Under the pieces are notes generated by a model. It saw only the letters and a list, made by a program, of their open reading frames with translations, searched no databases and was not told the origin of the DNA. DNA of 20,989 nt from NCBI GenBank assembly GCA_034660415.1, contig JAYEJE010000289.1:1-20989 (forward strand), given 5' to 3'. The DNA comes from Methanobacteriota archaeon (GTDB lineage: Archaea; Halobacteriota; Syntropharchaeia; Alkanophagales; Methanospirareceae). Shown one piece after another: positions 2,387-20,989 of the stretch (positions are counted from its first letter, which is position 1; every line of letters begins with the position of its first letter). The position numbers and the translations under genes are program-made.

Positions 2387-2504
2387 GAAAAGGCTATAGT
2401 AGTAAGTGAGTGGTAACGAGAAATAAGCGACTTTTTTTCATAAAGAAAGCAATTTTTTTCTTTTGTATCACGAACTAAAAAACGAAAAAGAGGTTTGGAA
2501 AAGT

Positions 2505-2723: not shown

Positions 2724-2755
2724 AGGTTCATTACGCTTCTGATATAAACATTTCC

Positions 2756-2795
2756 AAAGCTATAGCGTTCCTATAGCTTTCTCTTTTATTTTTTT
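2756..2795 (+). terminator. hairpin plus T-tract between convergent TRAM and RNase J genes
   Basis: A perfect 10-bp stem, aaagctatag (2756..2765) / ctatagcttt (2771..2780), has a 5-nt loop. It is followed by ctcttttattttttt, including a T7 run at 2789..2795. Confidence 0.5.
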
Positions 2796-2848
2796 GTTGA
2801 GCCACGCCACATAGCCACCTATAGATAGAGTACCCCTAAAACACACGA

Positions 2849-4138: not shown

Positions 4139-4251
4139 GTTATTATGTTTACTCTAAGCTTTACTTGAATAAAATACTATAGCAGCAAATGAAATAACTC
4201 AGGTGCAAAGCCCTTAACCACATCGGTGCTATCATGCGAACCTCGAAGAAC

Positions 4252-5541: not shown

Positions 5542-5563
5542 GTTTTTTTTCTTCCTAATTAAT

Positions 5564-5710
5564 CTATCTGCGCTTTCTGGAGCTTACCGCTATAATCGAA
5601 AAGAATACAGGAATCAGGGAAACCACAGGACCGAATATCTCATCCTGGGCTATGCGCATGTCAGGTCCAACGTCTGTGAAGATGGTGGGTTCAAAGAAAT
5701 AATCTTGCAT
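5564..5710 (-). pseudogene. relic of an aldehyde dehydrogenase (ALDH superfamily) core
   Basis: A 48-codon minus-strand ORF reads [36 protein letters not shown].... This matches the ALDH block G-x-F-x-x-PT-x-F-x-DV-x(3)-M-x-I-x-x-EEIFGPV that lies C-terminal to the catalytic Cys. About 375 N-terminal codons and the C-terminal region are missing. An in-frame TGA lies 2 codons upstream of the ATG. Confidence 0.6.
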
Positions 5711-5784
5711 AATGATTCATCAATAAGCATAAAGGAGTATAATAACTTTTCGGATTTTTACATGAACGAATATTTGATGGAGCT

Positions 5785-7458
5785 CTAGTCCGTCCTCTGC
5801 CACAAACCTTTCTCTTTAAGCTTTTCAATCACCTCTCTCTTTCGCACAAACTCCACGGTTCTGAGCTCTTTACGCTTAATTTTACCACTAATAGTTTTTG
5901 GGAGCTCGTTAACAAATTCAATCTCTCTAGGATACTTATATGGTGCAGTTATCCGTTTGACATGCTGCTGAATATCCGTGATAAGTTTTTCTGATGGTTC
6001 GTGTCCCTCCTTTAAGACAACAAAAACCTTAACAATCTCCCCTCTTACGGGGTCAGGGCTTGGAATCATCGCACATTCAAGCACTGCCTCATGCGAATCA
6101 ACTGCACTTTCAACCTCAAATGGACCGATTCTGTATCCTGAACTTATACATACGTCATCAGCCCTTGAGTCAAACCATATGTATCCCGCCTCATCCATCA
6201 CTGCGAGGTCTCCAGTTAAATACCAATTGCCAACGAAGCATTCAGCGGTTTTTTCTGGTTTATTATGATATCCTTTGAACAGCATCGGATGATCCTTAAC
6301 AACAGCAATCATTCCTGTCTCGCCTATTGGCACTCGTTCTCCTGTCTCAGGATCCACAATTGCACCCTCAACCCCTGGTGTAAACCTACCCATCGATCCA
6401 GGCTTTATCTCCATTCCCGGTAGATTGCATGCAACAACACAAGTTTCTGTCTGGCCATAACCTTCTCTAACAGATACACCAAGCTTCTCATCGAAGAATC
6501 TAATAATGCCGGGTGTGCAGGGCTCTCCAGCAGTTAAAATGACCTTCAAGTCATTCAAATCGTATCTTTTGTCTGCATCATCAACTGTTGCCATAGCCCT
6601 GAGTTCCGTTGGCGTCATACATGCCCTGTTTATCCGCCATCTATCAAGCAGCTCAAACCATTTTTCTGGTTCAAATCTGCCGCTGTAATGGAAATTTGTA
6701 GCGCCGGCATTTACAATAGTCCCAAATGGCGACCAATACCATTTAACCCATCCTGGTTCTGTTGTTGCCCAGCAGAGCTCGTCTGATTGCGTATCCCACC
6801 AATAATATCTATTCAGCCTCTCGAAACAGTACATCAATGAATGGGTGTGTAACACCCCTTTTGGTGCGCCTGTAGTCCCTGAAGTGTAGTTGACGGTTAA
6901 GGGATCACTTTTTTTGGTTTTTTCAAGCGTTAGAGTTCTTGATGCCGAATTGACCTCCTGCCGGAAGTCCCGCCATCCCTCTCTCTGACCTGAAAAGAAA
7001 AGGGTTTCAATTGAAATTCTATCTTTTATTGCATCTATCTCATCAGCAACCGTTGAATCACTTGTAATTAAAGCCTTGACCCCTGCATCTAAAATCCTAT
7101 ATTCTATATCTGCTCTCCTGAGCATTATTGTACCAGGAACAACAACGCCGCCTAGTGCCCAAATACCGATGCTTACAGTATAAACATCCGTTCCCCTCGG
7201 TAGTATTACCAAAACCCGATCACTTTTGTGGATGCCGGAATCTCTCAAGACGTTTCCAAATCTCATGGCACTGTTCCATACTTCCCAGTATCCTGCTTTC
7301 TCAACCTTCCCGTCTTGATGCTCAGTAATTGCCATCAACTTTGTTCTATCGTCTGCCCGTCTTCTAATAACATCAACAAAATTGTAGTCTTCAGGAATAT
7401 CCCATTTGAACTTCTTTCTTTCCTCGTCATAATCAAATGCGGCTATTTCTTTCCCCAT
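5785..7458 (-). CDS. AMP-dependent acyl-CoA synthetase/ligase (medium-chain ACS-like)
   Basis: Adenylate-forming motifs YTSGTTGAPKGV, EGYGQTE, YLTGDLAVMDEAGYIWFDSRADDVCISSGYRIGPFEVESA and the C-terminal PKTISGKIKRKELR. Confidence 0.85.
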   Translation of the reverse strand: MGKEIAAFDYDEERKKFKWDIPEDYNFVDVIRRRADDRTKLMAITEHQDGKVEKAGYWEVWNSAMRFGNVLRDSGIHKSDRVLVILPRGTDVYTVSIGIWALGGVVVPGTIMLRRADIEYRILDAGVKALITSDSTVADEIDAIKDRISIETLFFSGQREGWRDFRQEVNSASRTLTLEKTKKSDPLTVNYTSGTTGAPKGVLHTHSLMYCFERLNRYYWWDTQSDELCWATTEPGWVKWYWSPFGTIVNAGATNFHYSGRFEPEKWFELLDRWRINRACMTPTELRAMATVDDADKRYDLNDLKVILTAGEPCTPGIIRFFDEKLGVSVREGYGQTETCVVACNLPGMEIKPGSMGRFTPGVEGAIVDPETGERVPIGETGMIAVVKDHPMLFKGYHNKPEKTAECFVGNWYLTGDLAVMDEAGYIWFDSRADDVCISSGYRIGPFEVESAVDSHEAVLECAMIPSPDPVRGEIVKVFVVLKEGHEPSEKLITDIQQHVKRITAPYKYPREIEFVNELPKTISGKIKRKELRTVEFVRKREVIEKLKEKGLWQRTD

Positions 7459-7476
7459 TTTTCCTGTATCTCAAAA

Positions 7477-8190
7477 TTATGATTTTAATTCCTCTAAAAC
7501 CCTATCAGGATAGTCACTGCTTATTATGTCAACACCTAATTCCTTCATCTTCTCTATATCTTCTATCTCATTCACTGTCCATACATTGACTCCAATGTCA
7601 TTTTTGTGGCATTCCTCTATGACTTCCTCATCTACGAATTTGTGTTTCAGGCAGAGTAATTCTGATTGAGCTGCTTTTACTATCGATACTGTATCCACTG
7701 CTCTGCCAACAAAGATAGTTCCGGTTTTTATTTCAGGTTCTATCTCTTTACTCCTCTTCAATACATTGTGCCAAAAAGAAACTATAATGACTTTATTGTT
7801 CAACCCTTCTTCCTTTACAATCTTTAATATCCCTTCCAAGGTATCTGGTTCCTTTATCTCAATTGCAATCCTTTGCTTTCCTTTCTTCAATAAATCTACT
7901 GCTTCCTCCAGGGATGGAATCTTCTCGCCTTTTCCAGCATCTAGTTTCCTTATCTCCTCAAAGGTAAGGTCCCTTACGTAGCCGTTATCATTTGTTGTTC
8001 TGTCCACCTTATCATCATGTATAACTACCAATTTCTTATCCCTGCTCATCCTCACATCCAGTTCGATAAAATCCACACCTAAATTCATTGCTCTCTTAAA
8101 AGCCCTCATCGTGTTCTCAGGCTCTATGCCTGCACAGCCTCTGTGACCCAAAACTTTTACCATAAATTTATACTCGTTATGATACCACAT
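7477..8190 (-). CDS. glycerophosphodiester phosphodiesterase (GDPD family)
   Basis: VLGHRGCAGIEPENTMRAFKRAMNLGVDFIELDVRMSRDKKLVVIHDDKVDRTT is the GDPD signature. A TATA-like ATATTTAAA (8211..8219, minus strand) lies 21-29 nt upstream of ATG 8190, which is compatible with a leaderless start. ATG 8163 is an alternative start. Confidence 0.8.
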   Translation of the reverse strand: MWYHNEYKFMVKVLGHRGCAGIEPENTMRAFKRAMNLGVDFIELDVRMSRDKKLVVIHDDKVDRTTNDNGYVRDLTFEEIRKLDAGKGEKIPSLEEAVDLLKKGKQRIAIEIKEPDTLEGILKIVKEEGLNNKVIIVSFWHNVLKRSKEIEPEIKTGTIFVGRAVDTVSIVKAAQSELLCLKHKFVDEEVIEECHKNDIGVNVWTVNEIEDIEKMKELGVDIISSDYPDRVLEELKS

Positions 8191-8229
8191 ATAATGCTGG
8201 AGAATAAACCTTTAAATATGTAAAGTCGG

Positions 8230-9408
8230 TTAACTTAATGCTTGTTCCAGATCTGCGATTATGTCTTCCGGCTCTTCTATACCAACAGAGATCCGCACCA
8301 AATCATCGGTTATTCCCGTCTTCAACTTGATCTCTCGGGGTATATTCGCGTGTGTCATAGATGCAGGATGTTGAATTAACGTATCCACGGAACCGAGACT
8401 AACGGCTAAGATACACAGTTCAACGCGGTTCAGGAGTTTACGGCCCGCTTCTATGCCGCCCTTAATACCAAAAGAGATCATGCCACCAAAACCGCTCATC
8501 TGCTTTTTTGCGAGTTCATGTTGGGGGTGGCTTGGCAATCCAGGGTATCGAACCCACTCGATTTTGGGATGCGCCTCCAGGAACTGAGCCACTTTCATTG
8601 CATTGTTAGCGTGTTTCTCCATTCTCAAGTGTAGCGTCTTCAATCCGCGGGTACACAACCAAGCTTCATGCGGGCCCATAGTTGCGCCAGTAGTATTAAC
8701 GAAAGGCGTCATGCTTTTGATAAATTCCTTTCTACTGACAAGAACGCCACCTAACAGATCGGCGTGACCACCTATGTACTTTGTACTGCTATGAACAACA
8801 ACGTCCGCACCCAATTTCAACGCTCTCTGAAACCGAGGCGTTGCAAAGGTGTTGTCGACGACGGAAAGAGCACCGATCTCCACGGCTATCTTGCATATCT
8901 GTTTGATGTCACTGATGATCAGGGTAGGATTTGCGGGCGTCTCCAAGAAGATCATTTTGGTGTTTTTTCTCAGATTGTCCTTCAGTTTTTCGAGATCGGT
9001 GGTATCGACAAAACTGGTCTCTATGCCGAACTTGGGTAGAACAGAAGAGAACAACTCGTGAGTGGAACCGTAAGTAACCTCAGTGGAGATTAGATGATCG
9101 CCCTTTTCTAATTGTGAAAGCGCAACAGCGGTTATGGCGGCCATGCCCGATGAGAATGTTTGACCACTTTCTCCGCCTTCGAGCGCAGCGATTTTATTAA
9201 CAAAAGCGGCGTGTGTAGGTGTGTTTGGCGCTACACGCACATACGTATATCCCTCTTCTTCGCCGGCGAACCTTGCGGCTCCTTGCTCGGCATTGTCATA
9301 TACAAAGGTGGACGTCTGATATATCGGCGTTGTATGCGCTCCGTACAGTCTGTCTGTCCCTTCTCCCGCATGAACACAGAGCGTGCCAAACTTCTTCTCC
9401 TTTTTCAT
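8230..9408 (-). CDS. Cys/Met-metabolism PLP enzyme (cystathionine gamma-synthase / methionine gamma-lyase / O-acetylhomoserine sulfhydrylase family)
   Basis: TLCVHAG, TTPIYQTSTF, FSSGMAAI and HSSTKYIGGHADLLGGV (PLP lysine in S-x-T-K) match. About 390 aa. Subfamily not resolvable by eye. Confidence 0.85.
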   Translation of the reverse strand: MKKEKKFGTLCVHAGEGTDRLYGAHTTPIYQTSTFVYDNAEQGAARFAGEEEGYTYVRVAPNTPTHAAFVNKIAALEGGESGQTFSSGMAAITAVALSQLEKGDHLISTEVTYGSTHELFSSVLPKFGIETSFVDTTDLEKLKDNLRKNTKMIFLETPANPTLIISDIKQICKIAVEIGALSVVDNTFATPRFQRALKLGADVVVHSSTKYIGGHADLLGGVLVSRKEFIKSMTPFVNTTGATMGPHEAWLCTRGLKTLHLRMEKHANNAMKVAQFLEAHPKIEWVRYPGLPSHPQHELAKKQMSGFGGMISFGIKGGIEAGRKLLNRVELCILAVSLGSVDTLIQHPASMTHANIPREIKLKTGITDDLVRISVGIEEPEDIIADLEQALS

Positions 9409-9510
9409 CTCTATCGACCACCTCTCAAACTCATTGTTTCCGGATAATACATTAAAATTTTACCGGGCGTACATTTAAATTACTTTTGATATTTTTATGT
9501 ACGTTCCTTC

Positions 9511-9520
9511 TATATATAAA
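9511..9520 (+). promoter_or_regulatory. TATA-like box (TATATATAAA) upstream of acs
   Basis: An AT-rich element lies 17-38 nt upstream of the two candidate acs starts (GTG 9537, ATG 9549). Confidence 0.35.
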
Positions 9521-9536
9521 TTGAAGTTAAAAGAAG

Positions 9537-11462
9537 GTGGCATTAATTATGGAAAAAGTGAAATTTTATCTAGTAAAAGGGTATATAGACTTTCAAAAGA
9601 ATGCAACTGCAGACATAGAACGTTTCTGGGCGAAAGAAGCGACAAAACTAGAATGGTTTAAACCCTGGGAAAAAGTACTCGAATGGGAAGAGCCATTTGC
9701 AAAATGGTTCGTTGGTGGTAGGCTCAATGCATCTTACCTATGCGCAGATAGACATTTATATTCCTGGCATAAGAATAAAGTGGCTTTATATTGGGAAGAT
9801 GAAGCGGGAAATACAAAAGCTTTCAGTTATTTTCAACTCTATCGAGAAGTGAACCGGTTTGCATCCATGCTGGAGAATCTTGGCGTGAAAAAGGGTGATC
9901 GGGTAGTATTATACTTGCCTATGATTCCTGAACTCACGATCGCCATGCTCGCAACAGCAAGAATAGGTGCTATCCATACCGTTGTATTTTCAGGGTTCAG
10001 TAGCCAGGCACTGGCAGATAGAATCAATGACACATCGGCAGAGGTGTTGATATGCGCGGACGTTGGAAGAAGAAGGGGGAAATACATACCGCTTAAAACG
10101 ATCGTTGACGAGGCCATGAAGACTACTCCGACCATAGAGAATGTAGTTGTGATAAAACGGACGGAAGAAGATATAAATATGGTGGCGGGTAGAGACCACC
10201 TATACCAGGATTTAATAAAAGATGCCGATGAGTATGTAGAACCAAAGCAATTGGACTCTACCCATCCATTGTATATTCTCTACACGTCTGGAACCACGGG
10301 GAAGCCTAAAGGAGTCGTCCACTCAACAGGCGGATATTTGGCCTACATCTATGCCACCTACAAATGGGTCTTTGACATATCTGATGAGTCGGTCTATTGG
10401 TGCACGGCAGATGTAGGCTGGGTGACAGGACATACATCAATAGTTTATGCGCCTTTACTTCATGGTGCAACAGTACTCATGTATGAAGGAGCACCTGATT
10501 TTCCGAATCCTGATAGATGGTGGGAGATTATCGAGAAATATGGCGTCACAATCTTTTATACCTCTCCAACTGCAATCCGGATGTTTATGCGTTATGGAGA
10601 AGAGCGAATAAAAAAATATGATTTGAGCAGTTTAAAAATCCTCGGCTCGGTCGGTGAGGTTATCAATCCTGAAGTATGGGTATGGTATTACAAGAATATA
10701 GGGGACGAGAGATGTCCGATAGTAGATACCTGGTGGCAGACAGAGACAGGGGGGATAATGATTTCTCCCGTACCTGGTATAGAGCTCGTACCTCTTAAAC
10801 CGGGTTCTGCAACTCTGCCTTTACCTGGTATAGACGCAGAGGTAGTAGATGAGGAAGGCAATCTAGTAGACCGGGGTATAAAAGGCCATTTGGTAATACG
10901 AAAACCCTGGCCTGGTATGTTGATGGGGCTTTACAAAGACCCAAAAAGGTACAAAGAGGTCTACTGGTCTAAATTTAAAGGTATGTTTTATACCGGCGAT
11001 TATGCGATAAAGGACGAAGATGGCTACTTCTGGTTGCTTGGAAGGACAGATGAAGTGCTAAAAGTAGCCGGGCATCGATTGGGTACCGCAGAGGTAGAAG
11101 GTGCTGTTGTGGCGACACCATTTGTTGCTGAGGCTGCTGTCATTGGCACGCCAGACCCTATAAAGGGAGAGAATATCATCGTCTTTGCGATATTAAAGGA
11201 AGGATATAAACCATCAGAGAATCTGAAACAAGAAATAATCAAGGAGATTCGTAAGCAAATAGGACCTATTGCTACGCCACAGGAGATTTACTTCGTGGAA
11301 AAACTGCCCAAGACAAGGTCTGGTAAGATAATGAGACGTGTTTTAAAAACTATTATAATGGATAAGCCTATTGGAGACCTTAGCACTTTGGAGGATGAAG
11401 CTTCGGTAGATGAAGTAAAGGCAGTTTACGAAGAGTTCAAACAGATGGTGAAGGGGGTATAG
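9537..11462 (+). CDS. acs: acetyl-CoA synthetase (AMP-forming)
   Basis: FWAKEA...[93 protein letters not shown] and [14 protein letters not shown] are canonical Acs motifs. The start may instead be ATG 9549, which is preceded by GAAGGTGG. Confidence 0.9.
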
Positions 11463-11617
11463 GGGTATTTTGGTTAAAGAAAGGAGGGAACATCTAGCCA
11501 TCCCAACTCTCTTGCTATTAGTACGGCATAGATGTCCCGGAGGCTTATGAGTACTATTTCATCCGTGAAACGGACCTGCCGGACTATGTATCTGTTGGCG
11601 CGACGTCCGTTAATGGG

Positions 11618-12808
11618 GTGGTGAGAACCAGCAACGAGATCGAGTATAACCTTAATAAGCACCCATTGAAGGATCAGACGCTGACCGGCAACAAGTTCTG
11701 GGACCTACGAGAGACAGAACCACTACCGGCTCCAAAGGGGCCGGACTTAGCGATTTTATCCGCGGAGAACTGGGCGTTTGAAGATGATGGACGGGTACTG
11801 CAACTCCTCGTGAAAATCGCGAATCACGGTGACACCAGAGCCAATCAGACAAGAGTTTATGTAGGGGATCCACAGCACGACTGGCCAGGTCGAGAAAGCG
11901 TGGTTCCTACTTTCAATCCCGAAGAGACGGGAACGATAGAAATACGACTTGACATTCCAGAGGAACAGAGGGGAACGACACACGTGTTTATGCTTGAACT
12001 CGATCCCGAGGACATGATCCAAGAGATAGATGAAAGGAACAATGTGGGGTGGACGCCCGGCATATTTATCCCCCCGCTCGAAGTGTCTCCAACACCGACT
12101 GAGCCAACATCATCCCCTACTGCTACACCTGTGCTCCCGGAGCCAGATCCGGTACCGCTTATCTTGATCGTGGTTACGATTGCCTCATTAGCTTGCATAA
12201 CCCTCATCATCCGTCACCATACCATTACCCAGCACCACAAGAAATGGCAGATGGAGGCGAAGGAAGAAGAGCCACCGGAGCACTGTCAGTATTGCACCCA
12301 CCACTGCCGTAAGATCGAACTTGAACTTGAACCGGCTATGCGCAAGATTACATACCTCTACCTCGGCGCCTACGACCCTGTTCATGGCGAGCAAATCAAA
12401 GAGGGGCAGGTAACGGGAGAGATTGTTGAAGGTCTAAACAAGGTAGTCTCGGCTCGTCACAGGCGTGAGAACGCAGAGAAACTGCAGGAGCAGGTGACAC
12501 TTCTGGCCCACGCGCTGTTGCAACAAATTATAGGATCGCTGCGCGACGAACTAGCACCCCGCGACATAACCATCACCGGACATCTGGGAGGTGGCAAGGT
12601 CACCTGCCAGTTCATTCTCTATCACTGCAAACGTAGCGGCACTATGAATATTTGGGAAGAAGAGGCAAAGTGGAAAGCAACGATTGCTGACGAACGTGAT
12701 GAACCCGTGGGCACCTTGCATAGCATTGACCCTGTAGAATCAGGGATTTCAGAACGACTGACACCTGTGCTGACCCGACTGCTGATGCAGTTCATTGAGA
12801 AAGTTTGA
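11618..12808 (+). CDS. CARDB-domain single-pass membrane protein with an uncharacterised cytoplasmic domain (possibly 5'-truncated)
   Basis: - CARDB-like block, aa ~41-145 (nt ~11738..12052): PDLAILSAE...LLVKIANHGDTRANQTRVYVG...FNPEETGTIEIRLDIP...LELDPEDMIQEIDERNN.
- Pro/Thr linker: PTPTEPTSSPTATPVLPEPDP.
- TM helix, aa ~179-198 (nt ~12152..12211), followed by basic RHH..HHKK.
- An unrecognised C-terminal domain of about 195 aa.
- The only possible starts are GTG 11618/11621, with no SD-like motif and no signal peptide. Confidence 0.6.
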   Translation: MVRTSNEIEYNLNKHPLKDQTLTGNKFWDLRETEPLPAPKGPDLAILSAENWAFEDDGRVLQLLVKIANHGDTRANQTRVYVGDPQHDWPGRESVVPTFNPEETGTIEIRLDIPEEQRGTTHVFMLELDPEDMIQEIDERNNVGWTPGIFIPPLEVSPTPTEPTSSPTATPVLPEPDPVPLILIVVTIASLACITLIIRHHTITQHHKKWQMEAKEEEPPEHCQYCTHHCRKIELELEPAMRKITYLYLGAYDPVHGEQIKEGQVTGEIVEGLNKVVSARHRRENAEKLQEQVTLLAHALLQQIIGSLRDELAPRDITITGHLGGGKVTCQFILYHCKRSGTMNIWEEEAKWKATIADERDEPVGTLHSIDPVESGISERLTPVLTRLLMQFIEKV

Positions 12809-12980
12809 GCGCACGATATTCGTTAACGCAACAGCTACTTGTACTGTCCACAAGCATGTTACAGTAACTTTTATATAGCATTCCTATCAGATAAAAAAGT
12901 AAACGTAGGAGAGTTAAGCGATGCTAATATCTATGCGATATATACGGGACCTTGTGGCGATTAAAGCATATAAAAAATAG

Positions 12981-13119
12981 GGTGCTCTCGTAGAGTTAGC
13001 GAAGAAAGTGGGTGATAGGGGGATTTATCTACAGAATGTTATTCCGCTCATCCCGCAGTATAAATTCGCCCATATCACACCGCCGACATTGCCGTGCTGA
13101 TACTATCGGCTGACTGGGA
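12981..13119 (+). pseudogene. relic of a NifB-family radical SAM gene 3' end (paralogue of CDS 15379..16326)
   Basis: GALVELAKKVGDRGIYLQNVIPLIPQYKFAHITPPT aligns with IIEIAKKVGGMGVYLQNIMPLIPQYKFAHITPPT of the intact gene. After an internal deletion of about 23 codons plus a frame change, CRADTIG*LG aligns with CRADAIGRLG, with an in-frame TGA. The 5' ~245 codons are missing. Confidence 0.7.
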
Positions 13120-13169
13120 ATGCCCGAATATATTTTATTTATCTTTAGCCTTTAACCCTCATAATTACC

Positions 13170-13592
13170 TCATTCCCCTTCCACCGCTTCTTTCACTCGG
13201 TCCACTAAAATATCCACTATCCGCTCGTCCACTCCTATTGGCTTCGCGTAAGTTAGTTTCACATCACGTCCTACCTCTGCCCATTCCCCCTCGAAGGCTA
13301 TCTTCAGCGTCTCTGGGATGTCCTCCGTGGTATGTGCACCATCAGCCAAAAAAACAGGCAGAGCCACTATATTCTTCTTCCCCTCCTTAGCCAGCGTTCT
13401 TAACATGTCTTCTATACTCGGCGAGTTCAATTGCATAAATGCTACTTTCACATCTTTAAATGTCCCTCGCATCTCCATTCGCTCCCTCAGCCCCTCTAAC
13501 ACTTCTTTGTTATACGGCAATTTGCTCCCATGTCCTATCAAAACGACAGTGGTCTCTACTCCATTTCCATCTTTATCTTCCGCTTCAGCCAT
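13170..13592 (-). CDS. cbiX: small CbiX-type (CbiX-S / CfbA-like) sirohydrochlorin chelatase
   Basis: VVLIGHGSKLPYNKEV...ALPVFLADGAHTTEDIP...KPIGVDERIVDILVDR matches the class-II chelatase CbiX-S/CfbA pattern (GHGS...P.FL..G.H...DIP). I prefer ATG 13592, preceded by AAGAGGT. The ORF track starts at TTG 13697, and ATG 13637 is also possible. Confidence 0.8.
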   Translation of the reverse strand: MAEAEDKDGNGVETTVVLIGHGSKLPYNKEVLEGLRERMEMRGTFKDVKVAFMQLNSPSIEDMLRTLAKEGKKNIVALPVFLADGAHTTEDIPETLKIAFEGEWAEVGRDVKLTYAKPIGVDERIVDILVDRVKEAVEGE

Positions 13593-13712
13593 TTTCTTTA
13601 CCTCTTTTGTTCTTCTATTTATCAAACTTTCTGCCATTAAATCAATTCCGTACACATTAAATATCTTTCGATTTTTTTCGTGGCAATCTCTACACAAAAA
13701 AGTTATCGAACG

Positions 13713-13721
13713 AAAAAAAAA
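13713..13721 (-). terminator. T9 tract after the DsrE-like gene
   Basis: On the minus strand, ctctttttttttcg lies about 33 nt after the stop at 13754. A TATA-like ATATTTAA follows further downstream, ahead of cbiX. Confidence 0.35.
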
Positions 13722-13753
13722 GAGAAGGGTGGATGGTAGCAGACAGACGCTAA

Positions 13754-14206
13754 TTATAAAGCTATGATTTTGTCCGCAGTAAGTGCCGCTTCCACAGCAT
13801 CCGGAATTTTCACGGGCATTATAAAATCTTCGATATTTGTTGTGTCGTCTACTGAGGTAGCGAATTCACTAACAACGTGGAATGTCGCACACGAGCCAAT
13901 TTTCACGCCCAGAGAGTCCTTTACAAACCTCGCCATCTGTTCCAGGTCGTCTGGCAGGTCCTTGGGATTTAAATCCTCAAACTGTCCAGCAATGAGTTCC
14001 TTCACTTCCGTAGGGAACGCCAATTTCGCCAGATTCCCTTTCTTCGCTACTTCTACTCCCTGTGGTCCGTAATACACCATAACGTCAGGGATATTATGGA
14101 TTTTCTTCGCCGTAAATGCAACAACATAGCTCGCATACTGGCTGAAAGGTCTGTCCATGCCCGAATTCACAAATATGAGCAGTTTTTCTATCTCCTTTAT
14201 TTTCAT
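13754..14206 (-). CDS. DsrE/DsrF-like (COG2210-like) family protein
   Basis: The pattern LLIFVNSGMDRP...ASYVVAFTAKKI...VMVYYGPQGVEV resembles the DsrE-fold N-terminus, and a later conserved Cys (IGSCATF) is present. GGAGGT precedes the ATG. Assigned by resemblance only. Confidence 0.45.
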   Translation of the reverse strand: MKIKEIEKLLIFVNSGMDRPFSQYASYVVAFTAKKIHNIPDVMVYYGPQGVEVAKKGNLAKLAFPTEVKELIAGQFEDLNPKDLPDDLEQMARFVKDSLGVKIGSCATFHVVSEFATSVDDTTNIEDFIMPVKIPDAVEAALTADKIIAL

Positions 14207-14562
14207 TTTTTCTCTTTTTTACCTCCCTGTATTTCATAAACGCAAGGATGTATAAATAATTTTCTCTCGCTATCATCAATCCTTGAAATAATTTCGGTGT
14301 GGCGTATTATAATTCAGTGCCACCCGTTCCACGGATGTCAGGAACATGATCACATTATTGCATTTCCGCCAAGTGCAGCAACTATTAGACTCATGCACTC
14401 ACCTATTCTAAGAACACATCTATTACCTCTTCCAAATTTGCATTTCCAATCTCCATAATACCGTACCGCACCCTTGTTGCAGGTTTATTGATATTAATAA
14501 CCTGACATTACGAGTTTTATAGGCTGCCATAGCTCGTATCTATAATCGTTAAAAATATCAAA

Positions 14563-15321
14563 TTATATTAATGCCTCTTCTACTGCTTCCCTAATCAAGT
14601 AACCCGCTTTATGCAAGACGGTATCTCCAAGTTCTCTATCTCGTTCCATGCTCGCAGTGCAGGGATAGGAATGATGAGATTCGCTGATTCGGTCGTAAAG
14701 TTCTCGTTTGTTATCTACTTCTACGCCTTCTAACTGCTTTGCCACGAACCATGTACTCCCGCAAGGGGCACTTCTCAACACCTCTACATGAGTAATACGC
14801 CCTTTTCTATCCACTTCTACCCTCACTTCGGGTCTGCCAATCCCGAACTCGGCTATAAACCTTCGAATTACGGGCTTGTCGTCCTCTGGCTTTAAATGCA
14901 AATCACAAAACGGCTTGGGAAGGACAATCTCAATCTCTTCTCTGTCGCATATCTCTTCAATCTGCGGTCTTGCAATTATAGCAGCACTCTCTTGTGGTAC
15001 AATCACAGCCTTTATTCCGGAATCCTTTAAAATAGGCATGAGTTCCAGCAGAAGGTCATTGTGTATCTCCGATACAATCGCTATGTCCGCATTTGGAATA
15101 TCATTCGGTAAATAGTCACCCGCGGAATCCTCTATGAATACCGGAAGCAGAGCAGTGTCTACAAGCTTAAAAAAGCCCTCTATACTGTCTGCAAATCCGT
15201 ATTTAGCGTCTTTACAGTGCGTGCATGCATCTGCACAGGATATGCAGAATGTTGAATAGTTTATGAGGTTTCCAATGACTCGTTCACCGAACTCGCCGCT
15301 GTATATTACTATCAAGTCCAT
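14563..15321 (-). CDS. DUF166 / COG1810-like Cys-rich protein
   Basis: N-terminal IVIYSGEFGERVIGNL followed by the Cys cluster CISCADACTHC, plus later conserved Cys residues (PFCD, APCGST, SYPCTAS). About 250 aa, as I recall for the archaeal DUF166 family. Not verified. Confidence 0.5.
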   Translation of the reverse strand: MDLIVIYSGEFGERVIGNLINYSTFCISCADACTHCKDAKYGFADSIEGFFKLVDTALLPVFIEDSAGDYLPNDIPNADIAIVSEIHNDLLLELMPILKDSGIKAVIVPQESAAIIARPQIEEICDREEIEIVLPKPFCDLHLKPEDDKPVIRRFIAEFGIGRPEVRVEVDRKGRITHVEVLRSAPCGSTWFVAKQLEGVEVDNKRELYDRISESHHSYPCTASMERDRELGDTVLHKAGYLIREAVEEALI

Positions 15322-15378
15322 TTTTTTCAGCGGTCTTAGTCTTAGACGCGGATTTTGGTGGATGGTGTGCTTTTTCGT

Positions 15379-16326
15379 TTATTTTGAGAACATACACCCT
15401 TGGATATCTTTTCCCAGTCTCCCAATAGCATCTGCGCGGCACTGCCGGCAGTGTGTCATCTGCATCACATATTCTCCACATTTCTCTTGCATCTCCTTCT
15501 TCTCACGCGGTGTTGGTGGTGTGATATGTGCGAACTTATATTGTGGGATGAGGGGCATGATATTCTGCAGATAAACACCCATTCCCCCTACCTTCTTCGC
15601 TATCTCTATGATGTGCGTATCATTCACCGTGGGAATAAAAACAGTGTTCACTTTTACCACTATCTTCCTTTTTACCGCTTCTTCTATTCCTTTTAACTGA
15701 TTCCTGAGCAATATCTCAGCCGCTTCTCGCCCTATGTATCTTTTACCCTCGTAATTGACAAAAGAATAGATGTTCTTGCCGATGTCTGGGTCTACGGCGT
15801 TCAGCGTAACGGTCACGTTGCCGATTCCCAGCTCTTCAAGTTCGTCAATTCTGTCTGGCAGGAGCAACCCGTTCGTACTCATGCACCTTATGATATGTGG
15901 GAACTCAGCCTTTACGAGCCTGAATGTTTCAAACGTCTCTTCGTTGAACAGCGGCTCGCCTGGTCCTGCAATGGCAACAACTTTGATGTAATGCACCTGT
16001 TCAAGCACTTCCTTTACCCGTTCTAACGATTCCTGTGGTGTTAGCACCTTGCTCGTCACGCCTGGTCGAGACTCATTCACACAATCATATTTGCGCAGGC
16101 AGTAATTACACTGGATGTTACACTTCGGCGCTACCGCGAGATGGATTCTACCAAATAAATGGGCAGCGTTCTTACTGAAACAAGGGTGTTCCTGGACTCT
16201 CCTCAGTTGCGTGGGGTCCCATGGTATTTCCTTGCCTTCTACTTTGGCTGTGGGTAGTGTACACGCCTCTTCACTCTCTGCAAGCGGCTCTACCATTCCA
16301 GTTGTTTTTGCTATGGTTTCGCTCAT
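15379..16326 (-). CDS. nifB: NifB-family radical SAM protein (stand-alone radical-SAM-domain type)
   Basis: HPCF...AAH...GRIHLAVAPKCNIQCNYCLRKYDCVNESRPGVTSKVLTP is the NifB signature around the CX3CX2C radical SAM motif. CMSTNGLLLP and VTVTLNAVDP are also present, as is the C-terminal CX9CX2C followed by RADAIG (KCGEYVMQMTHCRQCRADAIG). There is no NifX-like C-terminal domain. GGAGAAGG precedes the ATG. Confidence 0.85.
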   Translation of the reverse strand: MSETIAKTTGMVEPLAESEEACTLPTAKVEGKEIPWDPTQLRRVQEHPCFSKNAAHLFGRIHLAVAPKCNIQCNYCLRKYDCVNESRPGVTSKVLTPQESLERVKEVLEQVHYIKVVAIAGPGEPLFNEETFETFRLVKAEFPHIIRCMSTNGLLLPDRIDELEELGIGNVTVTLNAVDPDIGKNIYSFVNYEGKRYIGREAAEILLRNQLKGIEEAVKRKIVVKVNTVFIPTVNDTHIIEIAKKVGGMGVYLQNIMPLIPQYKFAHITPPTPREKKEMQEKCGEYVMQMTHCRQCRADAIGRLGKDIQGCMFSK

Positions 16327-16352
16327 GTTTTTCCTTCTCCAGAAATCTGTGA

Positions 16353-17021
16353 TTATAATACCTCTTTTTTAAATTCCTCAAACCCGATTTCTTTAATATA
16401 CCGACCCAATCGCTTTTTGGTATCGCAGTTCTTGTAGTAACTGATAATTTTATCCGCGAGTTCCATAGCATCGTCATCGTTCAAATTCGCCATTAGAACC
16501 TCTGCAATCGCAGGTGCTGCACCTGCAGAACCACCGACTACCACTTTCCAGCCCTTTGGCATACCGATAAAGCCCAGATCCTTTATCCACGATTCCGCGC
16601 AGCTATTGGTACAGCCGGAGACGCCGATTTTGAACTTTGAGGGTAGTTCCATTCCGTGATACTTCCTGTCAAATTCCATACCTAATTTCACCGAATCTTG
16701 CTTCCCCCTCTTACAGAACGTTGTTCCCGGACAGATTTTTACGCTTCTGACACATAACCCGATAGCAGCACCCGGCGGCATATCGAGGTCGTGCCAGGCA
16801 GCATCTATATCGCTCTCCGCTAAACCCACAATGGCTATTCGTTGCGCGGAGGTCAATTTTAACGCCTTTGCACTGTATTTCTCCGCGACATCTGCTATTT
16901 TCCTTAGCGTACAGGGTTCGCAAATTCCACCCGGCATCTGCGGCGCAATTGCATATGTTTCATAATCCCGTTGAACAATTGCACCTTTACCCAACAGATC
17001 ATTCTTCTTTTCTTCTACCAT
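16353..17021 (-). CDS. small siroheme/[4Fe-4S]-type sulfite/nitrite reductase-like protein (low-molecular-weight Dsr-like protein)
   Basis: GAIVQRDYETYAIAPQMPGGI...LRKIADVAEKY resembles the NIR_SIR ferredoxin-like half-domain. The coupled-cluster Cys motif is present: CX5C (CPGTTFC) ... CX3C (CTNSC). At 222 aa it is similar in size to known small assimilatory-type sulfite reductases. Confidence 0.8.
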   Translation of the reverse strand: MVEEKKNDLLGKGAIVQRDYETYAIAPQMPGGICEPCTLRKIADVAEKYSAKALKLTSAQRIAIVGLAESDIDAAWHDLDMPPGAAIGLCVRSVKICPGTTFCKRGKQDSVKLGMEFDRKYHGMELPSKFKIGVSGCTNSCAESWIKDLGFIGMPKGWKVVVGGSAGAAPAIAEVLMANLNDDDAMELADKIISYYKNCDTKKRLGRYIKEIGFEEFKKEVL

Positions 17022-17085: not shown

Positions 17086-18279
17086 TTATTCCATGAGTAT
17101 ACCCAGCTCCTTATGCTTATTCACGATTTCATCTGCTAACCGATCCAATGCTTTGAACACCTCTTCGCTTGGTACTCCTTTAGCAACAACAGGATCTAGC
17201 AGTTCTACCTTTAAGTTGGGTATCATATCCGAAATTTGTTCTACCATCCTGCTGCCCCAACCGTAAGACCCGATGATAGATGCGAATCTCAGTTTTGGTC
17301 TTAAAGCGTTTGCGAGATAAGCAGCATAAGCGACTTTCGGATGCGGGCCGACCAGAACGGTTGGAGACCCGATCACAACAGTAGCTGCATCTACCAACGC
17401 CATCGCTAATTTACCTATATCTGGTTCTGACAGATTAAACTGCTTTACTGTTATGCCCCGTTCAATCAAAGCCTCTGCGAAGTAATCCACCATTTTCCTC
17501 GTGCTGCCGTGCATTGAGATATAAGGTATGATTACCTCATTCTTCACATCGTCAGAAGCCCAATCCCTGTAAGCATTGAGTATGAAGTCTGGCTTATTAT
17601 GAACCGGCCCATGACTCGGTGCTATTATATTTAGCTCCAGATCCTTTATCCTGTGTAGATTCGTCCTAATAGCAATCCTAAAAGGCATCATAATCTCTGC
17701 ATAGTATCGCTTGGCTGCCTCATAGACTGTTGCCTCATCGGTTACAAACAGGTCGCTGGTTGCAAGATGCGAGCCGAGGAAATCGCAAGTAAAGAGTATT
17801 TTGTCTTCTCTTAGATACGTCAGCATCGTCTCGGGCCAGTGAACCCAAGATGCATGAATGAACTCCAGTGTTTTGTCGCCCAGAGATATAACCTCTCTAT
17901 CCTCCACGGTTAGGATTTTATCCTGGTGTATCAAAAGCAAATCCATAAGCATATCTTTGCATTTCGGTGTGCAGAGAACCCTAGCGTGGGGATATAACGC
18001 GAGTATTGCAGCTAACGACCCTGAATGGTCCTGCTCGGCGTGATTGGCTATGACATAATCTATATCTTTAATTCCAAGGTCTTCAAGATTTCTTACTAGC
18101 ACATCCGTCATGGTCGGGTCCACAGTATCAATCAACGCAGTTTTTTCGCTTCCTTTTATCAAGTAAGAGTTATAGCTTGTGCCATCGGGTAGCGGGATTA
18201 GTTCGTCAAATAACCTTCTATCCCAGTCAACTGCCCCCACCGAATAAATATGCGGTTTCAGTACTCTTCTAAGACTCAT
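17086..18279 (-). CDS. fprA: flavodiiron protein FprA (O2/NO reductase; F420H2-oxidase-type in methanogens)
   Basis: The metallo-beta-lactamase-like domain carries the diiron motif HAEQDHSG (H-x-E-x-D-H). The C-terminal flavodoxin-like domain contains ISMHGSTRKM...VIGSPT. I prefer ATG 18279 (MSLRRVLKP...) because ATG 18297 lies inside the upstream rubredoxin gene, and GGTGGAG sits just upstream of 18279. Confidence 0.9.
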   Translation of the reverse strand: MSLRRVLKPHIYSVGAVDWDRRLFDELIPLPDGTSYNSYLIKGSEKTALIDTVDPTMTDVLVRNLEDLGIKDIDYVIANHAEQDHSGSLAAILALYPHARVLCTPKCKDMLMDLLLIHQDKILTVEDREVISLGDKTLEFIHASWVHWPETMLTYLREDKILFTCDFLGSHLATSDLFVTDEATVYEAAKRYYAEIMMPFRIAIRTNLHRIKDLELNIIAPSHGPVHNKPDFILNAYRDWASDDVKNEVIIPYISMHGSTRKMVDYFAEALIERGITVKQFNLSEPDIGKLAMALVDAATVVIGSPTVLVGPHPKVAYAAYLANALRPKLRFASIIGSYGWGSRMVEQISDMIPNLKVELLDPVVAKGVPSEEVFKALDRLADEIVNKHKELGILME

Positions 18280-18280: not shown

Positions 18281-18418
18281 TTACTCCACCTTTTCAAATG
18301 CCTCTTTACCTACACCACAGGCGGGACAGACCCAATCCTCTGGTAAATCTTCAAATGTCGTTCCCTCTTCCACTTCGTCATATATATATTCACATACAGT
18401 ACATTTCCATTTTGCCAT
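18281..18418 (-). CDS. rubredoxin, short form (45 aa)
   Basis: Hand translation: [45 protein letters not shown]. It has both CxxC knuckles (CTVC, CPAC), plus YIYD and the DLPxDWxCPxCG rubredoxin signature. Below the ORF-track length cutoff. Confidence 0.85.
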
Positions 18419-18436
18419 TTTTCATCTACCTCTTTT

Positions 18437-18868
18437 TTATTTTAGCCTATCTGCAATCTTCTTACCGAACTCGCGGCATTCTTTCAGCCCTTTTTCGGTT
18501 GGTCCGCGTTTTATTCTCAGTCCCGGCTCTATCACGTCCATCCCGGCGAGATTCTTCATCGTTTCTGTCAATATCTCAATGGATTCGCCACTCCAGCCGT
18601 AGGACCCGAATGCCGCACCAACCTTGCCTTTCAAGTCTGCTTTATCCATCACGAAAAGAAACGTCTTCATCGCTGCTATCAAGTTACGAACATACGTTGG
18701 AGAACCGAGAACTACGGCATCCACGTCTTTTAGGTCATCTTCATTTGCACGTGCTGCCTTTTTCCGTTCGACTTCAACTCCCGCTTCTTTCAAGCCCGTT
18801 TCTATTGCTTTTGCCATCATTTCCGTATTGCCCGAACGTGTTTCATATATTATTATTGCTTTTACCAT
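18437..18868 (-). CDS. flavodoxin-like FMN protein (143 aa), copy 1
   Basis: KAIIIYETRSGNTEMMAKAI (FMN phosphate-binding loop S/T-x-x-G-x-T), VVLGSPTY and AAFGSYGWSGES follow the short-chain flavodoxin pattern and resemble the FprA C-terminal domain. Confidence 0.75.
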   Translation of the reverse strand: MVKAIIIYETRSGNTEMMAKAIETGLKEAGVEVERKKAARANEDDLKDVDAVVLGSPTYVRNLIAAMKTFLFVMDKADLKGKVGAAFGSYGWSGESIEILTETMKNLAGMDVIEPGLRIKRGPTEKGLKECREFGKKIADRLK

Positions 18869-18955
18869 TTTTTGATAACATCTCCTAACTTCTTACCTAC
18901 TTCTTACCGCCGACCCAGTAGATTTTAGGGTGTATCTCTATCATTCTATTCTATT

Positions 18956-19093
18956 CTAATCCTCCTTCTTGAATGCGCCTTTGTCTGCACCACAGACAGG
19001 ACATACCCAATCATCAGGTAAATCGTTAAATGCCGTCCCGGCTTCTTCTTCGTCGTAGATATAGCCACAGACGGTACATATCCATTTTGCCAT
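18956..19093 (-). CDS. rubredoxin, short form (45 aa)
   Basis: Hand translation: [45 protein letters not shown]. Same architecture as 18281..18418. Below the ORF-track cutoff. Confidence 0.85.
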
Positions 19094-19164
19094 TTTTCAT
19101 CTACCTCCCTTCTGTTATACTTTCCTTCTCATATTTCAAATTTACGGCAGAGAACGTGGAGTTG

Positions 19165-19596
19165 TCAGGTCATCTTAGCCGCAATCTTCTTCCCGAACTC
19201 CTTGCACTCCTTTTCTCCTGTAACTACTTCCGTGCCTTTCATCTTCAGCCCAAGTTCTATCACGTCCATCTCGAAGATATGCTTCATCGTATCGCTCATC
19301 ATCTCAACTGATTCACCACTCCAGCCATAAGCACCAAATGCCGCTCCGACTTTTCCTTTCAAGTCCACTTTCTTCATCTTGAAAAGGAATGTCTTCATCG
19401 TGCCAATCATGTCATGATGAAATGTCGGGCAACCAAGAACCACAACATCCATGTCTTTGAGGTCTTCCACCTCTGTACTCAAAACCTTTTTCAATTCAAC
19501 ATCAACTCCAGCCTCTTTCAGGCCTGCTACTATTGCTTTTGCCATCGTTTCCGTATATCCATAGGTGGTTTCATAAATTACGATTGCTTTTGCCAT
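19165..19596 (-). CDS. flavodoxin-like FMN protein (143 aa), copy 2
   Basis: KAIVIYETTYGYTETMAKAI, VVLGCPTF and AAFGAYGWSGES. Same length as 18437..18868 and roughly 60% identical by eye. Confidence 0.75.
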   Translation of the reverse strand: MAKAIVIYETTYGYTETMAKAIVAGLKEAGVDVELKKVLSTEVEDLKDMDVVVLGCPTFHHDMIGTMKTFLFKMKKVDLKGKVGAAFGAYGWSGESVEMMSDTMKHIFEMDVIELGLKMKGTEVVTGEKECKEFGKKIAAKMT

Positions 19597-19613: not shown

Positions 19614-19964
19614 TTAGAATACTATCACTTCGTATCCCGCTTCCATGTATCTGGACAAGCTTGGGTGTCCTGACATCTCACCGCATATCGGTAGCTCTTG
19701 CTCCTCTGCACTCTTTAACGCACCTGTCTGAGTAGAGCATGTTTTGCAGACGCAATCAATTATCCCCGCTTTTTTGACTTCTGCATACAGATTTGCAAAC
19801 GGTTTTTTAGGATCTGCGAGTTCTTCCACCTTCTTCGTGGCCGAGCCCTCTATTATCAATTTCACATCGTATTCCTTATTCTTCAGATCTAAGGTATTCA
19901 AGAGCGTATGTGCAAAACACATTGGTTCTCCGTTGAACGCAAAGATAGCTACCTTCTTGTTCAT
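19614..19964 (-). CDS. small DsrE-like protein (116 aa)
   Basis: MNKKVAIFAFNGEPMCFAHTLLNTLDLKNKEYDVKLIIEGSATK...CKTCS...GHPSLSRYMEAGYEVIVF resembles small DsrE-family proteins that I recall from anaerobe redox-stress loci. I prefer ATG 19964, because the ORF-track start at 20063 would overlap the ferritin gene by about 95 nt. Confidence 0.55.
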   Translation of the reverse strand: MNKKVAIFAFNGEPMCFAHTLLNTLDLKNKEYDVKLIIEGSATKKVEELADPKKPFANLYAEVKKAGIIDCVCKTCSTQTGALKSAEEQELPICGEMSGHPSLSRYMEAGYEVIVF

Positions 19965-19968: not shown

Positions 19969-20493
19969 TTACGCACCCCCCGCTTCCGCAGTCGTAGGAG
20001 GCGTAAATACCCGCATCGCCAGCTCTTTGTCCACCATGAGCAAGCCATTACCGTCTTCTCCAACGAGCTTCAACATGGCAATGATTTCATTGTCGTTACC
20101 TTCCTCTTCTATCTGTTCCGTAACGTACCATTGCAAGAAAATGTTCGTAGCGTGGTCCTTCTCTGCGATAGCGAGGTCCACGAGCTCGTTGATGCTCCTC
20201 GTAATGAACTGCTCGTGCTCCAGAGTCTTCTCAAACATATCCAGAGGCGACTCAAATTCTGTCGCGGGTTGTTCAATAGCCATGAGCGTCACCTGGCCAC
20301 CCTGGTCATTGATGTAGTCGTAGATTTTCATCGCGTGCACCATCTCCTCCTGGTACTGAACCATGAACCAGTTGGCAAATCCTTTCAATCCGGTGTACGA
20401 GCTGTATGCGGACATTGCCATATACAGATACGCAGAATACATTTCCTTGTTGAGCTGACCATTCAGCGCTTCCTGCATCTTTTCGCTTAGCAT
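19969..20493 (-). CDS. ferritin (non-haem, Ftn-type)
   Basis: MLSEKMQEALNGQLNKEMYSAYLYMAMSAY...QEEMVHAMKIYDYINDQGG...LEHEQFITRSINELVDLA...FLQWYVTEQIEEE matches the ferroxidase-centre helices. I prefer ATG 20493, preceded by GAGGTG. The ORF-track N-terminal extension overlaps the peroxiredoxin gene. Confidence 0.9.
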   Translation of the reverse strand: MLSEKMQEALNGQLNKEMYSAYLYMAMSAYSSYTGLKGFANWFMVQYQEEMVHAMKIYDYINDQGGQVTLMAIEQPATEFESPLDMFEKTLEHEQFITRSINELVDLAIAEKDHATNIFLQWYVTEQIEEEGNDNEIIAMLKLVGEDGNGLLMVDKELAMRVFTPPTTAEAGGA

Positions 20494-20506: not shown

Positions 20507-20989
20507 TTACTGCTTTTTGTGGCAGAACCACCAATCATAGCATTCGTATTGCTTGACCCGTTCCTTCGCGGTTTGCTCATCAGATGCAGGAGGAATTATA
20601 ACTCTGTCGCCGATCAACTCGTTGTTTGGCCAATTTGCAGGTATCGCAACGCCGTGTTCATCGTTCGTTTTAAGCCCACGTACCATTCTCAAGATTTCAT
20701 CCATGTTCCTACCGAGTTCCTGTGGATAATAAATCATAGCTCTCATTATTCCATGCGGGTCAACGGCAAATACAGCCCTAACCGTATTCGTGCCCTTGTT
20801 GGGATGGATGAGTCCCAGCATCTTGGCAACTCGACCGGTGTCGTCCGCGATGATTGGAAACTTTATCTCCTCATCCAGATTCTCCTTTATCCATTCCACC
20901 CATTTTATGTGACTGAATACCTGGTCAATGCTCAATCCGATAAGTTTGCAGTCGAGTTCCTTAAACGCCTCAAATCGTCTTTGAAACGC
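20507..20989 (-). CDS. peroxiredoxin (archaeal Prx6/1-Cys-like type), 5'-partial
   Basis: The frame stays open to the window end ([30 protein letters not shown]...). [20 protein letters not shown] and the C-terminal [12 protein letters not shown] resemble archaeal thioredoxin-peroxidase-type Prx. The peroxidatic Cys region lies outside the window. Confidence 0.9.

Follow-up and report, generated by a model that had tools for sequence, protein, structure and literature searches.

The 20,989-nucleotide (nt) stretch of contig JAYEJE010000289.1 analysed here in full (hereafter the window, whose coordinates are used throughout) carries a gene for the radical S-adenosylmethionine (SAM) enzyme NifB within an unbroken run of minus-strand genes that extends from the right end of the window down to position 13170. 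A sequence-only reading of this DNA had singled out the last five genes of the run, encoding a small siroheme-type reductase, NifB, a DUF166 protein, a DsrE-like protein and a small CbiX-type chelatase, as a possible self-contained module for Fe-S, tetrapyrrole and sulfur cofactors. We compared the window with ~170 related loci (L numbers below), among them 80 genome loci with NifB relatives and several metagenomic contexts, and mapped the window genes together with reference genes for defence against reactive oxygen species (ROS) onto the collected NifB loci. We favour a different explanation, with a probability of about 0.65: the region comprises three independent units in an ANME-1 genome, and NifB is a housekeeping copy in the tail of an oxygen-defence operon. 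In the order of the minus strand, the features are as follows.

20507..20989, minus strand: peroxiredoxin of the 1-Cys type, cut by the window end (PF00578, PF10417)
19969..20493, minus strand: non-haem ferritin (PF00210, E = 7e-43), in the 174-amino-acid (aa) form of its relatives, with ribosome-binding site and ATG seen
19614..19964, minus strand: small DsrE-family protein, 116 aa (PF02635, 23.5 bits)
18281..19596, minus strand: tandem-duplicated flavodoxin–rubredoxin (Fld–Rd) pairs (Flavodoxin_1; rubredoxin PF00301), with Fld at 19165-19596, Rd at 18956-19093, Fld at 18437-18868 and Rd at 18281-18418
17086..18279, minus strand: FprA-type flavodiiron protein, an O2/NO reductase (PF19583, PF00753 and a flavodoxin domain)
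16353..17021, minus strand: alSir, an assimilatory-type low-molecular-weight siroheme sulfite/nitrite reductase (Group I Dsr-LP), 222 aa (PF03460, PF01077)
15379..16326, minus strand: NifB of the minimal archaeal type, which has a radical SAM domain but lacks NifX (TIGR01290 and alignment to 6Y1X)
14563..15321, minus strand: DUF166 protein, Cys/His-rich, variable last gene of the operon (PF02593)
14207..14562, minus strand: intergenic region between DUF166 and orf150, with a T5 run just after the DUF166 stop codon and a TATA-like box TTATTTATAC ~50 nt before orf150
13754..14206, minus strand: orf150, a DsrE/YchN-fold protein with a single invariant Cys106 in the context S-C-A-T-F-H (AlphaFold and Foldseek)
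13170..13637, minus strand (open reading frame (ORF) to 13697): CfbA, a small CbiX sirohydrochlorin chelatase (NF033198, PF01903)

The five genes at the 3′ end of the run (alSir, NifB, DUF166, orf150 and CfbA) are co-oriented as the sequence-only reading had described them, and all their ORFs were confirmed, along with gaps of 26 nt between alSir and NifB, 57 nt between NifB and DUF166 and 356 nt between DUF166 and orf150. Its calls for all five proteins survived profile searches and structure matching, 'DsrE-like' at the level of fold only, and it was right that this is not a nif locus: profile searches found no nifH, D, K, E, N, I1 or I2 domain in any large ORF of the 21-kb window. What it had missed was the co-oriented run upstream, comprising FprA, two rubredoxins, two flavodoxins, a second DsrE-like ORF, ferritin and peroxiredoxin, as well as the oligo-T runs and TATA-like boxes at the DUF166/orf150 and orf150/CfbA junctions. 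It had also held that the organism could not be placed in ANME-1. The closest NifB sequences (72–93% identity) come from Methanophagales (ANME-1), 'Methanospirareceae' and Candidatus Argoarchaeum (GoM-Arc1), and two loci, L114 (AHKK01013027) and L013 (Methanophagales CSMAG_2415), match the window at ~94–96% DNA identity over >10 kb. Because the nearest NifBs are thus those of ANME-1 and GoM-Arc1, and because one of the two ~95% identical loci is labelled Methanophagales, sequence relationships place the source organism within ANME-1 (Methanophagales).

NifB itself scores 378.2 bits against the TIGR01290 equivalog profile (cutoff 343.65) and aligns with PDB entry 6Y1X, which we take to be the NifB of Methanothrix thermoacetophila, at ~70% identity over 287 residues (E = 1.8e-139); an exact-sequence look-up returned no match. 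In that alignment the motifs HPC, CX3CX2C, NESRPG and the C-terminal HCRQCR are all intact, with identically aligned ligands of the radical SAM and auxiliary [4Fe-4S] clusters (C69/C73/C76, H47-P-C49 and H292-C293-x2-C296). The ~70% identity to the M. thermoacetophila enzyme suggests that the window NifB makes the [8Fe-9S-C] L-cluster. M. thermoacetophila has no nitrogenase; its NifB makes this same cluster, since it complements a nifB deletion in Methanosarcina acetivorans and supports diazotrophy (bioRxiv 10.1101/2023.10.20.563283), and we therefore judged a formal NifB phylogeny with bacterial diazotrophs to be non-decisive. The same study found nifB to be universal in methanogen genomes, including those of non-diazotrophs, and essential in M. 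acetivorans. A structure published in 2025 showed that the complex that activates methyl-coenzyme M reductase (MCR) carries [8Fe-9S-C] clusters, for which its authors propose NifB as the source (PMC12176620). Given this universality and essentiality and the clusters of MCR activation, a stand-alone nifB is expected in a methane-metabolising archaeon and is no anomaly; the housekeeping NifB probably feeds the MCR activation complex.

A relic of a second nifB, a C-terminal fragment at 12987..13119 on the plus strand, lies convergent with CfbA. It shows 76% identity to NifB residues 239-272 and a further match to residues 290-305 (tblastn), and it recurs in three close relatives (L013:5011-5148, L114:~5260-5646 and L092:1582-1713), a pattern suggestive of an old duplication or rearrangement of nifB here. 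The intact NifB of L013 (1943-2890) is 77.8% identical to that of the window, its flanking genes being 90–98% identical, which points to an allele replacement or recombination confined to nifB; the NifB of L114 is 92% identical.

The genes that precede NifB belong to a recurrent cluster for ROS defence and iron homeostasis. Its full upstream pattern among the relatives is EncFtn/rubrerythrin-like – desulfoferrodoxin – [catalase] – peroxiredoxin – ferritin – small DsrE-like – flavodoxin – rubredoxin – FprA – [NifU_N] – [alSir] – NifB, and the window shows this series with the Fld–Rd pair duplicated, the relatives having a single pair before FprA. The first cluster gene visible is the peroxiredoxin, the frame of which stays open as far as the window end and runs collinear with the 218-aa peroxiredoxin of L001; at the other end of the series, the ATG of FprA overlaps the stop codon of the second rubredoxin. 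FprA stands upstream of NifB, directly or with only NifU_N or alSir between them, in most ANME-1 and GoM-Arc1 loci. A NifU_N gene is found just upstream in L003, L013 and L020 and immediately precedes NifB in L009, L018 and L019; downstream of NifB, the relatives carry shikimate dehydrogenase, DUF166 or other genes. ROS or iron genes lie directly upstream of NifB on the same strand in 18 of the 22 closest species-level loci (L006–L027, NifB 71–91% identical in the best segment), and L114 and L174 also carry them upstream. Among the 58 loci with NifB 61–71% identical in the best segment (L028–L085; Methanoregula, Methanothrix, Methanoculleus and others), a single one has any such gene nearby, on the opposite strand. 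The linkage is conserved in ANME-1, GoM-Arc1 and a few other metagenome-assembled genomes (MAGs) of uncertain placement. At the one Methanoregula NifB locus annotated, the neighbours are a transposase, OGG and AdoHcy hydrolase, with no methanogenesis-marker or ROS genes among them.

Several smaller observations concern this cluster. The 116-aa DsrE-family ORF occupies the same position in L001, L003, L011, L012 and L014; it contains five Cys and is a conserved member between ferritin and flavodoxin in ANME-1 and GoM-Arc1, and a paralogy check detected no sequence similarity between it and orf150. Both rubredoxin ORFs are 45 aa long, below the usual ORF length filters. In L174, a DUF166-headed ROS/NifB cluster (991-6765, minus strand) is divergent from a second stress cluster (7001-13649, plus strand) of ferritin, HSP20, peroxiredoxin, SufC, SufBD, rubrerythrin, FMN reductase and flavoprotein genes, so that Fe-S assembly genes stand beside the same island.

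Between FprA and NifB lies alSir, whose PF03460 (NIR_SIR_ferr) and PF01077 (NIR_SIR) domains cover residues 16-80 and 90-221. In an alignment with the F420-dependent sulfite reductases (Fsr) 7NP8 and 7NPA, C97-X5-C103 and C137-X3-C141 fall on the siroheme-[4Fe-4S] cysteines, and alSir lacks the ~58-residue insert of Fsr, which fits the single-polypeptide architecture of Group I Dsr-LP. Among NCBIfam profiles alSir matches the NirB siroheme module best, though with a score well under the cutoff, and nitrite is for this reason a possible substrate besides sulfite. The protein is present and expressed in ANME (PMC6286981), and small Dsr-like proteins confer sulfite resistance in Methanococcus. 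The conserved position of alSir directly before nifB inside a ROS cluster is not described in the literature that we searched. The stop codon of alSir and the start codon of nifB overlap by 4 nt in L003, L005, L008 and L024, and the two genes nearly abut in L022, where the operon runs on past NifB with FMN reductase and flavoprotein genes. The gene is, on the other hand, absent from the GoM-Arc1 loci and many others, and in three MAGs the same in-frame deletion has joined residues 1-23 to residues 202-222 (L006:421-552, L014:6738-6869 and L027:1575-1706). The resulting 44-codon remnant is well conserved and still abuts an intact nifB; it may be retained for translational coupling to nifB.

Transcription signals divide the run into what we read as three transcription units, [...FprA–alSir–NifB–DUF166], [orf150] and [CfbA], because both the DUF166/orf150 and the orf150/CfbA junctions contain T-runs and TATA-like boxes. 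The gaps between FprA and alSir, alSir and NifB, and NifB and DUF166 are free of T-runs, and the earlier suggestion that alSir, NifB and DUF166 are co-transcribed remains plausible from these short gaps. After the orf150 stop codon the window has T9 and T6 runs, followed 40–60 nt upstream of CfbA by the motif AAAAAAATCG.AAA.TATTTAA (window ~13655-13685, minus strand), which is strongly conserved in 20 related ANME-1 loci (L086–L114, L163); every orf150–CfbA pair shows several oligo-T runs after the orf150 stop codon and before this motif. A scan for sigma-70 promoters and intrinsic terminators, a scan not suited to archaea, returned fewer sites than shuffled controls, and scans against Rfam, with the 356-nt gap included, and for tRNAs gave no match.

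Close strains differ from the window in several of these genes. L114 is without DUF166 (window 14419-15302 missing) and its orf150 is 5′-truncated, with 144 nt including the start codon missing; L013 is without orf150 and has an extra NifU_N gene; and the intergenic region 14207..14562 is rearranged in both. The idea of a self-contained module fails on these grounds: the genes fall into three units, some of them are lost in ~95%-identical strains, and orf150–CfbA occurs elsewhere without NifB. The grouping of NifB, CfbA, the DsrE-fold protein and DUF166 is a strain-specific juxtaposition, neither a cofactor module nor a methylthio-F430 pathway. Farther along the window, a plus-strand gene (11618-12808) encodes a 396-aa CARDB-domain protein with a probable membrane segment, and the whole segment that holds it (11455-12968) is a strain-specific insertion or deletion, since it is missing from the ~95%-identical L114 and L013. 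A 296-aa ORF at 554-1444 on the minus strand matched no Pfam family.

The two units beyond the operon tail have a distribution of their own. Searched against Pfam and NCBIfam, PF02635 included, orf150 gave no match at E 0.01, and none of its 83 homologues has a precomputed Pfam domain. Its AlphaFold model (pLDDT 92.3), however, found DsrE, YchN or DsrEFH proteins as all of its top seven Foldseek matches in the PDB (E 4.7e-7 to 2.3e-4, probability 1.0; among them 1JX7, 3MC3, 3PNX, 2HY5 and 2QS7), and 'DsrE-like' accordingly holds for orf150 at the fold level only. CfbA scores 137 bits against F430_CfbA (NF033198, cutoff 120) and E = 6.5e-26 against PF01903, retains both conserved His residues (G-H36-G-S and G-A-H102, numbered on the 155-aa form) and probably starts at 13637 or 13592, the orthologue in L013 being 155 aa long. 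No cfbB–E gene lies in the window, so that CfbA is not clustered with cfbBCDE there. Among 29 loci with an ANME-1-type orf150 homologue (at least 68% identical) and enough downstream sequence, CfbA comes next in 20, which include two genomic contexts without NifB. Named archaeal matches of orf150 come from Methanophagales only. CfbA is never adjacent to the bacterial homologues (up to 63% identity); L091, the one bacterial locus annotated, has hybrid-cluster-protein and ferredoxin genes upstream of the homologue.

In L100, divergent ORFs beside orf150–CfbA (1196-3692, minus strand) resemble, by eye only, corrin methyltransferases of the CbiT/CbiL/CbiH type; if that identification is correct, the context hints that the small CbiX also serves cobamide synthesis. 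A radical SAM gene ~800 nt downstream of CfbA in L100 was considered as an F430-modifying candidate and dropped, as it occurs only in L094 and L100.

The last gene of the operon, DUF166, matches PF02593 over profile positions 1-219 of 221 (E = 1.5e-66, 224.6 bits), with C29, C33, C36, C139, C187, C221, H87, H216, H217 and H237 invariant in the alignment. With seven Cys and four His conserved, a metal or Fe-S site is predicted. It is not a member of the DfsP selenoprotein subfamily (NF041372; 54.8 bits, cutoff 200). Its predicted structure has no significant match to a solved fold (best biliverdin reductase, E = 1.8e-3, TM 0.29), so we draw no function from the fold. The gene follows NifB in the window, L013 and L020, heads the cluster in L023, L025 and L174, and occurs elsewhere too (L172). 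Conservation of the Sir-like/NifB/DUF166 neighbourhood had been one of the checks suggested by the sequence-only reading; the alSir–NifB adjacency is kept among relatives, but DUF166 varies and alSir is lost in many.

Taken together, we propose that unit 1 is the 3′ end of an operon for oxygen/ROS defence and iron homeostasis whose last conserved genes are alSir and NifB, DUF166 being a variable add-on. Its alSir would reduce sulfite (or nitrite) at a siroheme-[4Fe-4S] site, and the NifB cluster would serve the MCR activation complex, plus a nitrogenase where one exists. Placed behind O2-scavenging genes, nifB could be co-expressed with the removal of O2, ROS and sulfite, allowing the oxygen-labile L-cluster to be resynthesized and MCR to be reactivated through rebuilt L-clusters after an oxidative episode; both this co-regulation and its repair rationale are what we infer. 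Units 2 (orf150) and 3 (CfbA) would each use their own promoter and travel together in ANME-1 independently of NifB, with CfbA predicted to insert Ni for F430 and possibly Fe or Co for siroheme and B12. L-clusters made by NifB take their carbide from SAM and, in vitro, their ninth sulfur from sulfite (PMC10622910, PMC13474568), and this sulfur is labile under oxidising conditions (PMC13474568). In stressed Methanobrevibacter ruminantium, nifB is upregulated together with fprA and rbr (PMC5816558), a weak and circumstantial hint. A broader extension, which we regard as doubtful and offer tentatively, is that nifB is wired into the oxygen-stress regulon of ANME-1 and related alkane oxidisers, often coupled in translation to alSir, as a repair system that rebuilds the L-clusters of MCR activation after an oxidative episode, and that the sulfite which alSir handles may feed, or regulate, the insertion of the ninth sulfur.

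Some points weigh against our favoured explanation. The promoter and terminator calls are TATA-like and oligo-T motifs read by eye with no validated model, and co-transcription and oxygen-responsiveness are deduced from spacing and such signals only. L020 and L022 have no ROS genes upstream of NifB (L009 and L021 are too short to judge), the NifB of other methanogens shows no ROS context, and the linkage could be a gene order that one clade has inherited, without functional meaning. Extended to every neighbourhood, the ROS–NifB linkage included, chance adjacency is an unlikely account, one that draws on the confinement of the linkage to a single clade and on the indel hotspot that has collected CARDB, NifU_N, DUF166, orf150 and the nifB relic. 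It sits poorly with a linkage that persists despite heavy rearrangement in ANME-1, GoM-Arc1 and other lineages with NifB 70–80% identical, with gaps that are tight or overlapping and carry no terminator signals, and with a DUF166 gene that joins the cluster at either end in different genomes. Rather unlikely, in turn, is a dedicated pair, with alSir binding, making or partly reducing sulfite and handing sulfur on to [Fe8S8C] on NifB. The origin of the ninth sulfur from sulfite is established in vitro, the overlap of alSir stop and nifB start in several genomes would suit such a pair, as would the relic that keeps the nifB junction, and no physiological role has been assigned to alSir in ANME (PMC6286981). 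Yet many relatives retain NifB but have no alSir or an internally deleted one, methanogens with a functional NifB show no alSir linkage, NifB alone carries out the sulfite step in vitro, and the retained junction may reflect translational coupling only. Such a pair, if it exists, cannot be obligatory.

The sequence-only reading itself had favoured a single five-gene unit, in which CfbA supplies siroheme to the Sir-like protein, this supplies sulfide to NifB clusters, and sulfur or clusters are carried by DUF166 and the DsrE-fold protein. We consider this improbable. The alSir–NifB adjacency is conserved and often overlapping, a NifU_N scaffold gene lies near NifB in six loci (L003, L013, L020, L009, L018 and L019), and a small CbiX could plausibly insert Fe too. 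Set against this are the three transcription units, the presence or absence of DUF166 and orf150 among ~95%-identical strains, and orf150–CfbA pairs found away from NifB. The sulfide-supplying role of the Sir-like protein is weakened by relatives, GoM-Arc1 among them, in which alSir is absent, or a 44-codon relic in the three deletion MAGs, beside an intact NifB; ANME-1, moreover, inhabit sulfidic sediment, where producing sulfide is needless, and the ninth sulfur comes in vitro from sulfite, not sulfide (PMC10622910, PMC13474568). The most speculative suggestion, that NifB-type sulfide methylation, or the DsrE-fold neighbour, has been recruited to make 17(2)-methylthio-F430 in ANME-1, is very improbable, even though the source organism is an ANME-1 archaeon and the responsible enzyme was unassigned in 2023, an ANME-1 methylthiotransferase candidate having proved to be a tRNA enzyme (PMC10702137). 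Its better candidate is orf150 rather than NifB, being restricted among named archaeal matches to Methanophagales, usually beside CfbA, and having one invariant Cys in a DsrE fold. But orf150 is missing in L013, truncated in L114 and set off by its own terminator, and the genes around its bacterial homologues are unrelated ones, with redox genes close by in L091. Nothing in the analysis supports such a role for NifB, which is an ordinary orthologue, close to a proven L-cluster synthase and lacking any extra domain; the ethane oxidisers of GoM-Arc1 share its context; on the signal reading it is not co-transcribed with CfbA; and its stand-alone position is to be expected.

Since 2025, NifB has been tied to the activation of MCR, the enzyme responsible for almost all biological methane formation and anaerobic oxidation of methane. 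A clade-wide link of nifB with O2 and ROS scavengers and a sulfite reductase is a testable lead on the supply, protection and renewal of L-clusters, and on the in vivo source of the ninth sulfur, in the uncultured ANME-1. The analysis also removes a false lead, that of NifB, CfbA, DsrE and DUF166 as a cofactor module or methylthio-F430 pathway. The embedding of nifB (with or without alSir) in an oxidative-stress cluster is not described in the literature that we searched and is a modest, testable new point.

Among known systems, the window NifB resembles the minimal archaeal NifBs of M. thermoacetophila (6Y1X) and Methanothermobacter (7BI7, 7JMA and 7JMB) in its single radical SAM domain without NifX, in cluster-ligand motifs identical to those of 6Y1X and in being unlinked from nifHDK, as is usual in methanogens. 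It differs from other archaeal NifBs in lying near the 3′ end of an oxygen-defence cluster, often with alSir before nifB in relatives; that of M. marburgensis, for example, follows methanogenesis-marker genes (PMC12176620). With the canonical cluster nifHDK(EN)B it shares a bona fide nifB and differs in having no nifH/D/K/E/N/I1/I2 within 21 kb. The neighbouring alSir resembles the Group I Dsr-LP of Desulfovibrio, Methanosarcina barkeri (P590) and ANME (PMC6286981) in its length of ~220 aa, both domains and the CX5C...CX3C motifs. The DUF166 member of M. maripaludis, MMP_RS05055, is required for autotrophy dependent on carbon monoxide dehydrogenase/acetyl-CoA synthase and co-fit with CooC2 (bioRxiv 10.1101/2024.03.05.583561), whereas in the window, L013, L020, L023, L025 and L174 the family stands at one end of the ROS/NifB cluster.

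Unlike the sulfur-relay systems of DsrE, TusD and YchN, orf150 has no DsrF/H or TusBC partners nearby, and its DsrE fold carries one invariant Cys, Cys106, a candidate equivalent of the active-site Cys78 of DsrE. CfbA resembles the sirohydrochlorin nickelochelatase of F430 biosynthesis, scoring above the equivalog cutoff with both His present and with Ni specificity predicted here; it departs from CfbA elsewhere in being usually preceded by orf150 in ANME-1. Finally, the upstream genes are of the same families as the oxidative-stress clusters of methanogens (FprA/F420H2 oxidase, rubredoxin, rubrerythrin, desulfoferrodoxin and peroxiredoxin), likewise co-oriented and tightly spaced. The classical description of such clusters contains no metallocofactor synthase, whereas here NifB stands at the 3′ end, with or without NifU_N, alSir and DUF166.

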